Shown here piece by piece: positions 9,476 to 57,299 of a stretch of DNA of 64,000 nt. The position numbers were made by a program, and so were the translations under genes. The first letter of the stretch is position 1. Every line of letters starts with the position of its first letter. Under the pieces are notes generated by a model that was not told the origin of the DNA, did not search any database, and saw only the letters and a program-made list of their open reading frames with translations. This DNA is from Escherichia coli. Lineage in GTDB: Bacteria; Pseudomonadota; Gammaproteobacteria; Enterobacterales; Enterobacteriaceae. Location: assembly GCF_030013595.1 (NCBI RefSeq), contig NZ_CP122769.1; one strand, written 5' to 3'.

Positions 9476-9751
9476 ATGAATGAACTAAAATCCAAAAACG
9501 AGAACAGTACCAAAAGCAACTTTCCCCCGGTTGATAATCAGTTTTGCTTTTACCATGTTGATTTCAGCATAGAACGACTACTTTCTACGGCCGAGGATCT
9601 CCAGCTTGAGTACATCTTCCAGAAACCTGGAAGTGAAGTAAGAAAGGATTTGGTTGAGCGATTTGAACGTGGAGAGCGCTTTGTTACAGCTTCACACTGT
9701 GACAATTTCTGTGAAATCCTTGGTTGTCAAGGCCATCAGGAAAATGCATAA
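9476..9751 (+). CDS. hypothetical protein
   Basis: ORF with internal ATG at 9476 (track start 9446); no recognisable motif. Confidence 0.4.
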   Translation: MNELKSKNENSTKSNFPPVDNQFCFYHVDFSIERLLSTAEDLQLEYIFQKPGSEVRKDLVERFERGERFVTASHCDNFCEILGCQGHQENA

Positions 9752-43489: not shown

Positions 43490-43611
43490 ATGAATAAAAC
43501 AGCTTTAATTATGATTCTGGGAATCCTCGGATGTGGTAAAGCATTTGCAGCCACTGAATTACAGCTCCAGCAAAAACGCGTTATGCATTTCTGTGCCAAT
43601 GCCAGCCTTCC
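43490..43611 (+). pseudogene. small secreted/lipoprotein-like gene truncated by IS1
   Basis: ATG with aaggacgg RBS, signal-peptide-like MNKTALIMILGILGCGKAFAA; reading frame runs into IS1 inverted repeat. Confidence 0.4.
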
Positions 43612-43667
43612 GGGTGATGATGCCAACTTACTGATTTAGTGTATGATGGTGTTTTTGAGGTGCTCCA

Positions 43668-43943
43668 GTGGCTTCTGTTTCTATCAGCTGTCCCTCCTGT
43701 TCAGCTACTGACGGGGTGGTGCGTAACGGCAAAAGCACCGCCGGACATCAGCGCTATCTCTGCTCTCACTGCCGTAAAACATGGCAACTGCAGTTCACTT
43801 ACACCGCTTCTCAACCCGGTACGCACCAGAAAATCATTGATATGGCCATGAATGGCGTTGGATGCCGGGCAACCGCCCGCATTATGGGCGTTGGCCTCAA
43901 CACGATTTTCCGCCATTTAAAAAACTCAGGCCGCAGTCGGTAA
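43668..43943 (+). CDS. insA: IS1 InsA
   Basis: 91 aa, [23 protein letters not shown]. Confidence 0.95.
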
Positions 43944-44365
43944 CCTCGCGCATACAGCCGGGCAGTGACGTCATCGTCTGCGCGGAAATGGACGAACAGT
44001 GGGGATACGTCGGGGCTAAATCGCGCCAGCGCTGGCTGTTTTACGCGTATGACAGGCTCCGGAAGACGGTTGTTGCGCACGTATTCGGTGAACGCACTAT
44101 GGCGACGCTGGGGCGTCTTATGAGCCTGCTGTCACCCTTTGACGTGGTGATATGGATGACGGATGGCTGGCCGCTGTATGAATCCCGCCTGAAGGGAAAG
44201 CTGCACGTAATCAGCAAGCGATATACGCAGCGAATTGAGCGGCATAACCTGAATCTGAGGCAGCACCTGGCACGGCTGGGACGGAAGTCGCTGTCGTTCT
44301 CAAAATCGGTGGAGCTGCATGACAAAGTCATCGGGCATTATCTGAACATAAAACACTATCAATAA
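43862..44365 (+). CDS. insB: IS1 InsB (expressed as InsAB' by -1 frameshift)
   Basis: 167-aa ORF overlapping insA in the -1 frame. Confidence 0.9.
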
Positions 44366-44523
44366 GTTGGAGTCATTACCGGCAGCATCAACTACATCGC
44401 AAGCAGTAAGAGTAAGTGACGATGCCACAGCAAGACACAATAAAGAAAATCTGTTTTTGAACATATTTGAGACCTTTTATAAAAATAAAATAACAGGAGA
44501 ATTGTATCATTAACAGTCTAGTT

Positions 44524-45189
44524 CTAACGACTACCACTTTTAAGTATGTATTGAGCCAGTTTTATATTCAGGCACACCATATTGCACTCTAGCTCTTTCA
44601 TCATTCTTGAAGAACTCTTAATTAAGTATTCTTCAAGTGGGCCAGCATATGCCCCTGATGTCACGATCGTTAGTTGCGTAAGAGGATGAGTCAAACTCTC
44701 AATGCCCTTCAGGATGTCATTCTGGACAGCAGCAATATAAACAGGCGAAGCCGCAATCAAATATTCATCATTCGGGCTGGACTGCATTAACTGGCTTATA
44801 GTTGCGCAACGGTTATGCTTACCTAGTGATTTTGTGATGGCTTTCCACCAGAGATCATGCCTGAATGGTACTTGATGAAATGTCGCCTCGTAAGAGGGCA
44901 CCCGATCTCGACTATTTAAAAACCCCATCCCGGCAGAGATTATCCACAACTCCAGATTTCTGGTTGAGTTTAAAATTTCCTTTGCCGTAGACCAGTGATT
45001 ACCTGAATACAAGGACAATGCCGGTACCGCCTGATTACTTCTGGCGTCGTCTACAATGTTACTCCAGGCATATGCTGCGTCGTCCGGGGTTTGTTTTGGA
45101 TCTATGTCCAATGTCGGCCAGACGTGGCCCTGATGATTCTTGCCCTTTGTACAGGAAGTGATTAAGTGTACTGAGCGTTCAGAGAACAT
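44524..45189 (-). CDS. hypothetical protein
   Basis: 221-aa ORF, no recognisable motif. Confidence 0.5.
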   Translation of the reverse strand: MFSERSVHLITSCTKGKNHQGHVWPTLDIDPKQTPDDAAYAWSNIVDDARSNQAVPALSLYSGNHWSTAKEILNSTRNLELWIISAGMGFLNSRDRVPSYEATFHQVPFRHDLWWKAITKSLGKHNRCATISQLMQSSPNDEYLIAASPVYIAAVQNDILKGIESLTHPLTQLTIVTSGAYAGPLEEYLIKSSSRMMKELECNMVCLNIKLAQYILKSGSR

Positions 45190-45246: not shown

Positions 45247-45627
45247 TTACAAATCAGCCCCTTTCACGGCATCATTTTGATTCTTCGCGTCTGCCCCCAG
45301 TAAGATGACCGGTTTTCTGCATGACAGTGTTATTCCTAACAAACGCAACACAAAACCACGCCAGCCAGAGCAAATTTTTTCATTTGCTGCGTAAAGCCTA
45401 TTGTTTTCTCTTTTAAGCTTCGCCCACTCGTTACAGAGGGTAACATCATCAAGCGCTGTTATATGCTTCGCCTCACCTTCGACGATAACGGTATGGATAC
45501 CGTATGCTGTAAATCTCATACTATTTTCCAGAACCCAGTTGCGGTATTCGTCGAGTCCACCTTCGGAACCGGTAGCTCTGCGCCACATTTCAATTTGCTT
45601 GTGTGATGGGTCAAGTGTACTTGTCAT
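45247..45627 (-). CDS. hypothetical protein
   Basis: 126-aa ORF upstream of and co-directional with 44524-45189. Confidence 0.45.
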   Translation of the reverse strand: MTSTLDPSHKQIEMWRRATGSEGGLDEYRNWVLENSMRFTAYGIHTVIVEGEAKHITALDDVTLCNEWAKLKRENNRLYAANEKICSGWRGFVLRLLGITLSCRKPVILLGADAKNQNDAVKGADL

Positions 45628-53966: not shown

Positions 53967-54529
53967 CGCCTGGCGCTTCCCGGTCTAATTTTTCTTCAAC
54001 AAGATTAACCCCTTAGCGGCCTGAAGTATCAGGTTGCGATAGAGCCTTTCATTTCTTCTGTTATGTTAAATACACCATTTTGAGCTATTTCGCTCGGCCT
54101 TAAATTATCTCTTCATTCTTCAGTGAAAATTTTATGTCGATCACATTATCGATGAATTTAGGAAATAATCCGTAAATGAAAATCTATCTTCTTTTAAATT
54201 CATCAGTGTCAGTAGCAAATATTACGCATAAAAGAATGGTTATTATTATCATTTAAATTATAAAGCTCATGAGTCAATTCCAAAAAATATAATAAGCATT
54301 GAAATCATTACCCGTGATTCTGGAGTTTTAACTTTGCCATGTAACCAACCACAAGTTAGTTTCCGGTGTTTTGAGGGGCAGTAAAGTTCTGAAAGCGCGA
54401 CCAGATCATAATCCCGAAATGTCGTTAAGATATTCTGAATAACGGTTATCCCTGCTTGTTGGCAGGCATTTGAAAATATATTTTGTATTCAGGTTGCAGC
54501 AAAACGCTTTCTTACACACAGGACTTCAT

Positions 54530-56355
54530 ATGCGGCTCAGAAAATTAAAACTGAAAAACTTCAGAGGCTACAGAAACTCTACTGAAATCATTATTGATGA
54601 AAGCATGACGGGTATTGTCGGTCGTAATGACTTTGGGAAATCAACGCTTCTGGAAGCGCTGGCTATTTTTTTTGAAACAGAAGGAATGAAGGCTGACAAG
54701 AATGACATGAACTGTTTCAGCCTAAGAGAAGGGGACGGCCGTTTTGAAATAGCCTGTGAATTTGATGACCTGCCCGATTTTATCATGATCGACGACAGGG
54801 TGCAGACCACGCTCGCCTCAGAACATCTGCTGAATGAGGACGGCAATTTTGAAATCGTCAAAACGTTTAAAGCAACGACCTCAGGAAAACCGGAGCAGAC
54901 CTGCATCCGCTGCATCCACCCGGATGAGGAGCCCCTGAGAAATTTACTGGGCATGAAAATTTCTGAGCTCAAGGCGGTGGGAAAAGAAGTTGAAAAAAAT
55001 GTGGCGGATAAACGCACTGCATCGTTATGGCGTCAGGCCATCAGGGAAGCCGCAGCCCCCTATACCTGTTCGGAAATTATGCTGGATGTCGATAAAGAGT
55101 TCGGAACCGACACAAAATCATTATGGGGTAAGATCCTCGATTTGCTGCCCACGTATGCGATTTTCAAAGCCGACAGGGAAAGCAGCGACGGGGATTCCGA
55201 AGCTAAAAACCCCTTACAGCAGGCCGTAAAAGACGCTCAGGCTGCGCTGCAGGACAAAATTACAGCGCTGGAAAATGAGATTCAGGACAGCGTCCTGGAT
55301 GTCGCACAGAGAACGCTGGATAAATTACGTGAAATGGCCCCCGAACTCGCCAGTGAACTGACTCCACGATTTAAGGAGAAACCCAAGTGGACCTTCAATT
55401 TCACCCTGGACGGGGAAAATGGCATCCCCATCAATAAGCGCGGCAGCGGGATAAGGAGGCTTATCCTGTTGAATTTTTTCGGGCTGAGGCTGAAAAGAAT
55501 GTCGCGGGGACGCCCAGAAATGTGATTTATGCCATAGAGGAGCCTGAAACGTCACAGCATCCGAACTATCAGATGATGCTGATGAAAGCGTTACTGGCAC
55601 TGGCAGGCCAGCCGCACCGTCAGATTATCGTCACCACCCATGTCCCGGCGCTGGCCGGATTAATCCCTGTCGAAGGCGTACGTTATGTTACCCGAAATGA
55701 GGCGGGTGAACCCGTAGTAAAAATGCCGGATGACGCAGTGCTGAAGGAAGCCACTGAAAGCCTGGGGGTGCTGCCAGAGACCGGTATGGAAAGGGCGCAG
55801 GGGATTGTTCTGGTAGAGGGAAAGTCGGATGTTACTTTCCTGAGGCATGCGGCCAGTTCATTAAAACAGTCAGGTGCGCTGCCAGCCTCTCTGGAGGACG
55901 TGAAAATAGTGCCAGTCCTCATAGGAGGGTGTGGTAGCGTCAAACACTGGGTTACATTGAATCTGGCCAAAGATCTGGGGCTTCCCTGGTGCGTATTTCT
56001 GGACTCCGATATTGGGGGAGACCCTGCACAGGTTCTGTCCATCCAGAAGCGTAAAAAAGAAGTAGAGGAGGCCGGTAAGGTATTTTTCGCTACGCGCAAA
56101 CGTGAGATAGAAAACTATCTGTGCCCGGATCTTATCGAGGAAATTACTGGTGTAGCCGTCACGTTTACGGACACCTGTGACGCTAAAAAAATAATCGGCC
56201 GGGCTGTGGGAATGAAACCCGATAATGTACTAGATAAATTCTGGCCTCAGATGACATCAGAAAGAATCATCTCAAGATCAACCTATCATGACGGAACGCA
56301 GGAGAGAAGCGAGCTGGTTGAGATCCTGAGCGACATTGTATCCATGACGAGATAA
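54530..56355 (+). pseudogene. OLD-family ATP-dependent nuclease (AAA ATPase + Toprim), apparent frameshift
   Basis: Walker A GRNDFGKST; downstream frame has IEEPETSQHP and Toprim VLVEGKSDV / VFLDSD; frames switch at the T6C run 55474-55480. Confidence 0.65.
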
Positions 56356-56453
56356 TGTATTAAATAAGCATCTCAGGTGCATATATTCCGGTCCTCAACA
56401 AAGGACCGGAGTACAGAGTAGTAAAAACCCGAAATTAAGGTAATGACTCCAAC

Positions 56454-56957
56454 TTATTGATAGTGTTTTATGTTCAGATAATGCCCGATGACTTTGTCAT
56501 GCAGCTCCACCGATTTTGAGAACGACAGCGACTTCCGTCCCAGCCGTGCCAGGTGCTGCCTCAGATTCAGGTTATGCCGCTCAATTCGCTGCGTATATCG
56601 CTTGCTGATTACGTGCAGCTTTCCCTTCAGGCGGGATTCATACAGCGGCCAGCCATCCGTCATCCATATCACCACGTCAAAGGGTGACAGCAGGCTCATA
56701 AGACGCCCCAGCGTCGCCATAGTGCGTTCACCGAATACGTGCGCAACAACCGTCTTCCGGAGCCTGTCATACGCGTAAAACAGCCAGCGCTGGCGCGATT
56801 TAGCCCCGACATAGCCCCACTGTTCGTCCATTTCCGCGCAGACGATGACGTCACTGCCCGGCTGTATGCGCGAGGTTACCGACTGCGGCCTGAGTTTTTT
56901 AAGTGACGTAAAATCGTGTTGAGGCCAACGCCCATAATGCGGGCGGTTGCCCGGCAT
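56454..56957 (-). CDS. insB: IS1 InsB
   Basis: Near-identical to copy 1 InsB. Confidence 0.9.
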
Positions 56958-57151
56958 CCAACGCCATTCATGGCCATATCAATGATTTTCTGGTGCGTAC
57001 CGGGTTGAGAAGCGGTGTAAGTGAACTGCAGTTGCCATGTTTTACGGCAGTGAGAGCAGAGATAGCGCTGATGTCCGGCGGTGCTTTTGCCGTTACGCAC
57101 CACCCCGTCAGTAGCTGAACAGGAGGGACAGCTGATAGAAACAGAAGCCAC
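56876..57151 (-). CDS. insA: IS1 InsA
   Basis: Near-identical to copy 1 InsA (one substitution F to L). Confidence 0.95.
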
Positions 57152-57299
57152 TGGAGCACCTCAAAAACACCATCATACACTAAATCAGTAAGTTGGCAGC
57201 ATCACCGAAATTAATCGGGTTTGAATTGTATAAAGATTAACCGACTCCCGCGCCCAGGAACGATGTAAAATCACGCTTGTCGTGACATTTCTACAATGT

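Follow-up and report, generated by a model that had tools for sequence, protein, structure and literature searches.

IS1 copy 1 and the genes at its ends

The window (the whole stretch of 64,000 nucleotides that was analysed) is the backbone of an IncHI2 plasmid, as shown by its nearly identical sequence and shared gene order with plasmids of the type IncHI2A / MOBH / MPF_F. The gene order runs from the ter operon through hipBA, an HNH gene, a first copy of IS1 (copy 1) and two small genes to a Tn7-like tnsABCD element with sil/pco genes, which holds copy 2. In the set of complete E. coli genomes, the left flank of copy 1 (713 bp) matches 241 records and the right flank (820 bp) matches 230; nearly all matches are on plasmids of 150-370 kb and show at least 99% sequence identity. 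The window is 99.98% identical to NZ_CP117034.1 and collinear with it over 40.8 kb. This 232-kb IncHI2A/MOBH plasmid comes from a Salmonella enterica of pig faeces in Poland and bears mcr-1.1 and blaTEM-1. The window is also collinear with NZ_OY754830.1, plasmid pGPT21-001_1 of S. Typhimurium.

The features at the locus, and the IS1 copy used for comparison, are as follows.

43490-43612, plus strand: 5' remnant of a gene for a secreted protein (41 of 141 codons, including the signal peptide; WP_001043843.1 in relatives)
43613-44380, plus strand: IS1 copy 1, 768 bp, apparently intact, without target-site duplication
43613-43635, plus strand: left inverted repeat (IRL) of copy 1, GGTGATGATGCCAACTTACTGAT, 23 nt, C8A variant
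43668-43943, plus strand: insA, 91 aa (Pfam Zn_ribbon_InsA, 3e-21; HTH_Tnp_IS1, 1.7e-30)
43862-44365, plus strand: insB' frame, 167-aa ORF (Pfam DDE_Tnp_IS1, 2.3e-78)
44358-44380, plus strand: right inverted repeat (IRR) of copy 1, ...ATCAATAAGTTGGAGTCATTACC
44381-44464, minus strand: 5' remnant of a second conserved hypothetical gene (28 of 151 codons; WP_001572344.1 in relatives)
44524-45189, minus strand: first intact gene to the right of copy 1, 221 aa, WP_000490638.1 (DUF6884 with 30.4 bits; Pfam cut-off 30)
56439-57206, minus strand: IS1 copy 2 (comparison copy), a simple insertion inside the Tn7-like sil/pco element

The gene next to that for the 221-aa protein (45247-45627) has no Pfam family. 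Within the Tn7-like element, a run of six T at 55473-55480 corresponds to seven T in NZ_CP117034.1 and splits the gene for a 609-aa AAA-family ATPase into two ORFs (54470-55525 and 55522-56355); the difference reflects either a true frameshift or a sequencing error in the homopolymer.

Copy 1 has the length of an IS1 element (about 768 bp) and imperfect inverted repeats of the expected type (about 23 bp, GGTGATG.../...CATTACC), which are 23 nt each and complementary at 19 of 23 positions. It also has the insA and insB' frames with their InsA and DDE_Tnp_IS1 domains (PF03811, PF12759, and PF03400, E-values 3e-21 to 2e-78). A programmed -1 frameshift motif of the A6C type, TTAAAAAAC, starts at 43917 (IS1 position 305), and both frames are open. 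In relatives, identical copies bear the annotation IS1-like element IS1B family transposase (WP_095033700.1). In a self-comparison of the window, copies 1 and 2 form an inverted pair of 768 bp with 99% identity.

The 8-9 bp target duplication of a simple IS1 insertion is present at copy 2 but absent at copy 1. Copy 1 is preceded by ...GCCAGCCTTCCG and followed by GGCAGCATCAAC.... Its terminal 9-mers, AGCCTTCCG and GGCAGCATC, are alike at 2 of 9 positions, and no direct repeat appears at any shifted boundary. The initial annotation had stated that these flanks are not direct repeats and had named matching repeats at the exact boundaries as the observation that would speak against its reading; none were found. 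The clean 8-bp duplication that it described at copy 2 is TTAATTTC on the strand of the element (57207-57214 and 56431-56438). It does not extend to 9 bp, and the chance of such a match is about 1.5e-5.

It had also pointed out a single substitution in the left inverted repeat, which proved correct: copy 1 reads A at position 8 and copy 2 reads C. The two copies also differ at five internal positions (298, 301, 304, 393, and 396), which had been overlooked. A8 pairs with the corresponding base of IRR, so that complementarity rises from 18/23 to 19/23, and for this reason A8 is unlikely to disable IRL. The other IS1 copies examined in this IncHI2 region all carry C8 and are otherwise identical to copy 1. 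In PLSDB, the A8 allele occurs in 98 records at 110 places, compared to more than 17,000 IS1 places among the matches listed. Among its carriers are IncHI1A plasmids that are unrelated and in which IS26 has cut the IS1. As a minority allele with such carriers, A8 is neither private nor informative, and we thus discarded the ideas of a private mutation and of a donor tracer.

Both ends of copy 1 lie within genes, which are convergent. As previously noted, an ORF with a signal peptide starts at 43490 and reads into the inverted repeat: it extends to 43639 and codes for 49 aa, of which 41 are native (MNKTALIMILGILGCGKAFAATELQLQQKRVMHFCANASLP) and 8 are encoded by IS1 (GDDANLLI), followed by a stop codon. 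The claim that IS1 truncates a gene for a small secreted protein is borne out by the relatives, where this gene has its full 141 codons. The truncated gene on the right side had escaped notice. Its ORF starts on the minus strand at 44464 with MFKNRFSLLCLAVASSLTLTAC..., which resembles a lipoprotein signal, enters IRR, and stops at 44300. Neither the 141-aa nor the 151-aa protein matches a family in Pfam, NCBIfam, or PADLOC. Both truncated genes are presumably dead.

The missing backbone segment

A target duplication is a property of the insertion event and not of the element itself. The decisive test is not the missing repeat but the distance between the two flanks in relatives that are free of IS1 at this site, a comparison which the initial annotation had proposed. 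In NZ_CP031547.1 (strain cq9, locus L001) and in pSA186_MCR1 (locus L014), 7,809 bp lie between the flanks. On L001, the left one extends to position 1719 and the right one starts at 9529; copy 1 thus stands exactly in place of L001 1720-9528, 7,809 bp of backbone which most relatives have. The segment codes for the following.

The C-terminal part (100 codons) of the signal-peptide protein WP_001043843.1 (141 aa)
A partial pseudogene for the M subunit of a type I R-M system
A 99-aa ORF
A 679-aa UvrD-family helicase (best PADLOC model GajB, 1.4e-51; RTasHel/DRT model, 6.3e-51)
A 284-aa ORF which overlaps the helicase gene and has no match in Pfam, NCBIfam, or PADLOC
A 112-aa HNH_2 protein
A 67-aa ORF
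A 134-aa protein of the H-NS family, with the two H-NS domains of Pfam and NCBIfam scores of 183 bits (StpA model) and 171 bits (H-NS model)
A 78-aa ORF
The C-terminal part (123 codons) of the 151-aa protein WP_001572344.1 (opposite strand)

GajA is not present beside the GajB-like helicase in the segment L001 3379-6269. As a side observation, the helicase and its 284-aa partner in this segment might form an as yet uncharacterised defence-like module of two genes on IncHI2 plasmids.

The HNH allele WP_001572439.1 is common to the lineage of the window, cq9, and SA186, and the ancestor therefore most likely had the 7.8-kb version found in L001. We infer the exact size of the loss from this version, since the middle part differs or is shorter in other IncHI2 plasmids.

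For an absence check, the complete plasmid NZ_CP117034.1 was rebuilt from six loci. BLAST finds no match to the 7.8-kb segment in any part of this plasmid or in the window. Since the closest plasmid lacks the segment throughout, it was lost, not moved, which rules out its relocation. The initial annotation had left open an IS1-mediated adjacent deletion or a rearrangement. The deletion is supported by the missing 7,809 bp, but an inversion or translocation is contradicted by the collinear gene order and by the absence of the segment from the closest plasmid.

The gene structures show that the state of the window is derived, and a deletion as such is close to certain. At both break points, the genes for the 141-aa and the 151-aa proteins are whole in the relatives, whereas the window has only their 5' ends, which abut the IS1 termini. 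The segment is variable among IncHI2 plasmids (its middle differs in locus L006, and loci L004 and L005 lack the helicase part), which might have pointed to an ancestral window and an insertion of 7.8 kb in the relatives. However, this reading is effectively refuted by the truncated genes, and the IS1 termini fall exactly on the end points; we give it practically no weight. An artefact, in which a repeat-induced misjoin over IS1 collapsed the segment during assembly, is nearly as implausible. A 768-bp repeat that occurs at least three times in the plasmid is a classic cause of misassembly, but the same junctions are found in the window and in two further assemblies (L003 and L007), which are not identical and differ from the window by SNPs and indels. 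In addition, the segment is missing from the entire closest complete plasmid.

Copy 1 shows what is expected of an IS1-bordered adjacent deletion: the ends of the IS are precise, a duplication is missing, and relatives without the IS have contiguous DNA between the two flanks. It lacks a target duplication because of the deletion. Copy 1 is a standard IS1 element that borders a standard IS-associated deletion, and it should be annotated as a deletion scar instead of a simple insertion, with the ORFs starting at 43490 and 44464 as gene remnants.

Copy 2 is older than copy 1, since a copy at the same site is present in the cq9 plasmid, which still has the 7.8-kb segment. An inversion or other recombination between copies 1 and 2 is ruled out by this shared site and by the intact duplication of copy 2; it is also at odds with the intervening gene order, which is collinear with that of relatives. 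A composite transposon formed by the two inverted copies is likewise ruled out, the outer flanks AGCCTTCCG and GAAATTAAT being unrelated. The sequence of copy 2 varies between plasmids. It has seven internal differences from the IS1B-type allele in the cq9 plasmid (positions 262, 298, 301, 304, 393, 396, and 444), five in the window and in NZ_OY754830.1 (298-396), and none in NZ_CP117034.1; the copies compared with that of the window include L015 9586-10353 and L003 33228-33995. Copy 2 thus looks like a mosaic under homogenisation by gene conversion.

The plasmid lineage holds at least three copies of IS1. The third one (NZ_CP117034.1 132934-133701, about L010 20935-21702) is outside the window and is also devoid of a target duplication. 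It links backbone beside a DNA cytosine methyltransferase gene to Tn2-derived sequence upstream of blaTEM-1, which is followed by mcr-1.1 and pap2, and is another IS1-bordered rearrangement. Recombination of copy 1 with this third copy is ruled out, since the flanks do not pair in either orientation.

Origin of the deletion

IS1-mediated adjacent deletion is an intramolecular replicative transposition and was first described for gal/chl deletions in E. coli. As in these classical cases, the IS is kept at copy 1, its ends are precise, there is neither a duplication nor microhomology, and the lost DNA is contiguous with the IS site. Unlike in the classical cases, both junctions are new relative to every known relative. 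IS26 adjacent deletions and IS-by-IS recombination in resistance plasmids have the same outcome, an IS without target duplication which borders a backbone deletion, although IS26 belongs to another family with a different chemistry (cointegrate formation in the IS6 family). The end points of the deletion have no microhomology, IS1 is intact, and the junctions are exactly at its termini, which fits IS1 activity and not illegitimate recombination.

Since both junctions are novel, at least two events are required, and their order is not observable. We consider it somewhat probable that a simple insertion was followed by an adjacent deletion. In a first step, an IS1B-type copy would have been acquired by simple insertion, probably at the AT-richer right junction, with duplication of GGCAGCATC. 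In a later transposition, intramolecular and replicative, the IRL end would have attacked a site 7.8 kb to the left and been joined to ...AGCCTTCCG. The DNA in between would have been lost along with one of the two target copies, and the IS would have remained where it was with its IRR junction unchanged. A single adjacent deletion predicts a progenitor which has IS1 at one of the two junctions and a duplication of 8-9 bp; for the route proposed here, IRR would be followed by GGCAGCATC and IRL preceded by CGTCATAGGCAGCATC. The two hypothetical progenitor junctions would be AAAGTCTCGTCATAGGCAGCATC followed by GGTGATG... and ...GTCATTACC followed by AGCCTTCCGTTGTTGATTGCC. We place the first insertion at the right junction on two grounds: its GC content (0.38 vs. 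0.46 at the left junction) and the analogy with a neighbouring series of IS1 copies.

This series is found in the same backbone. In pCFSAN061772_02 (locus L006), an IS1 in the same orientation and with the same allele apart from position 8 is located 115 bp to the right of the right junction of the window and has a 9-bp duplication, GGAGAATTG. About 28 plasmids of PLSDB and 18 of E. coli have the same IRR junction as L006, with IRL joined to L001 1571 (L002 type) or 1521 (L013 type). The backbone is thereby joined 8.07 kb (L002) or 8.12 kb (L013) leftward, and the same hns segment is gone. One junction is thus equal to that of a duplicated simple insertion, which identifies L006 as the progenitor state of the L002 and L013 types, so that IRL-side nested deletions from a resident IS1 recur in this backbone. 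Loci L004 and L005 also share one IRR junction and differ in their IRL junctions. Taken together, the compared sequences suggest that nested adjacent deletions in the IncHI2 IS1 series are always on the IRL side. The IS1 copies concerned are at L006 12125-12892, L002 9253-10020, L013 3203-3970, L004 4575-5342, and L005 11174-11941; the L001 positions of the IRL junctions are 9652 (with duplication), 1571, and 1521 and, separately, 6961 and 6886.

The L006/L002/L013 series resembles the window in its backbone, its IS1 allele (except for position 8), its orientation, and the removal of the hns segment, and its left end points are within 200 bp of that of the window (L001 1719). However, its IRR junction is at L001 9644 as compared to 9529 in the window, which indicates an independent insertion. 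The series has a progenitor in the databases and about 28 PLSDB plasmids, whereas the window type has no known progenitor and two plasmids.

A missing target duplication is usually explained either by adjacent deletion or by IS-by-IS recombination (PMC11708052), and the sequence of copy 1 carries no mark which would separate an adjacent deletion from recombination between two IS1 copies. The latter would be a homologous, RecA-dependent crossover between directly oriented copies at L001 1719 and 9529, which would have left one hybrid IS1, with the left flank of one copy and the right flank of the other, and perhaps have removed a resistance region that once lay between the copies. We regard this main rival as possible but rather doubtful. 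IS1-bounded resistance regions are located in exactly this segment in many IncHI2 plasmids (L004, L005, and the large class H125-H160), the lineage has at least three IS1 copies, and such crossovers are a standard cause of missing duplications (PMC11708052). However, three events would be required in place of two, and in no plasmid of the searched collections is either position occupied by IS1, singly or together with the other. Copy 1 also shows no chimeric pattern and equals the common IS1B-type allele except for position 8, which is uninformative if both parents had the same allele.

Alternatively, IS1 might have been captured in one step at a double-strand break or a deletion intermediate, without staggered cuts made by transposase. 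Both junctions are novel and no intermediate is known, and a route of this kind has been proposed for IS5 and IS481 events (PMC11708052). It is hypothetical even in that study, and missing intermediates are weak evidence in natural isolates. At both inverted repeats, IS1 ends with base precision, as predicted by transposase chemistry, and we consider one-step capture highly unlikely. In the LTEE, an earlier IS insertion was present at the site in all 14 of 14 IS-associated deletions (PMC11708052). A simple insertion followed by an IRL-side adjacent deletion is thus the reading that we prefer at the strength given above.

Distribution of the junctions and loss of the plasmid hns gene

In the PLSDB junction search, for which all matches with at least 74% coverage were listed, both junctions occur together in only 2 of 72,556 plasmids, both from Salmonella (NZ_CP117034.1 and NZ_OY754830.1). 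The junctions of the window were found in none of the 5,426 complete E. coli genomes. A progenitor with IS1 at just one of the two junctions was not encountered in PLSDB, the 5,426 E. coli genomes, the GTDB species representatives, or the JGI metagenomes. A literature search returned nothing specific on this particular deletion or on the loss of hns from IncHI2 plasmids. Events of this kind are known, and two public records already contain the exact sequence. The junction pair, ...GCCAGCCTTCCG joined to GGTGATGATGCC and GTCATTACC joined to GGCAGCATC, is a precise clonal marker for a small mcr-1 IncHI2 lineage, which has so far been seen in these searches only in Salmonella.

IncHI plasmids carry paralogues of H-NS, such as Sfh of pSf-R27 and the H-NS of R27. 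Like these, the deleted 134-aa protein belongs to the H-NS family (171-183 bits), and Hha is retained elsewhere on the plasmid. A difference is that the IncHI2 gene is commonly lost or truncated in its plasmid group. In the set of complete E. coli genomes, the left flank is present in 241 records, hns DNA of any length in only 162, and at least 80% of the gene in only 101; the gene is partial in about 61 further records. By these counts, truncation or loss of the plasmid hns gene is frequent in IncHI2 plasmids. As about 40% of the surveyed E. coli IncHI2 plasmids have a full-length hns, the gene is clearly dispensable.

IS1-bordered removal of the hns segment is seen in the window type, in the L002/L013 series, and in many plasmids which have a resistance region in its place. 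It is unlikely, in our view, that this recurrent and independent loss of the hns/helicase segment was selected and does not just reflect a hotspot for IS1. If there was selection, possible gains would be a lower cost or an altered thermoregulated transfer in Salmonella and E. coli, which have chromosomal H-NS/StpA.

The significance of the finding beyond annotation is small, copy 1 being an ordinary, textbook-type scar of an IS-mediated deletion. Its consequence for the lineage is the loss of the only plasmid-borne H-NS homologue: none is encoded across the whole 232 kb of NZ_CP117034.1, on which the Hha/YmoA gene is kept. The plasmid is thus presumably now reliant on the chromosomal H-NS/StpA of its host, together with the retained Hha.
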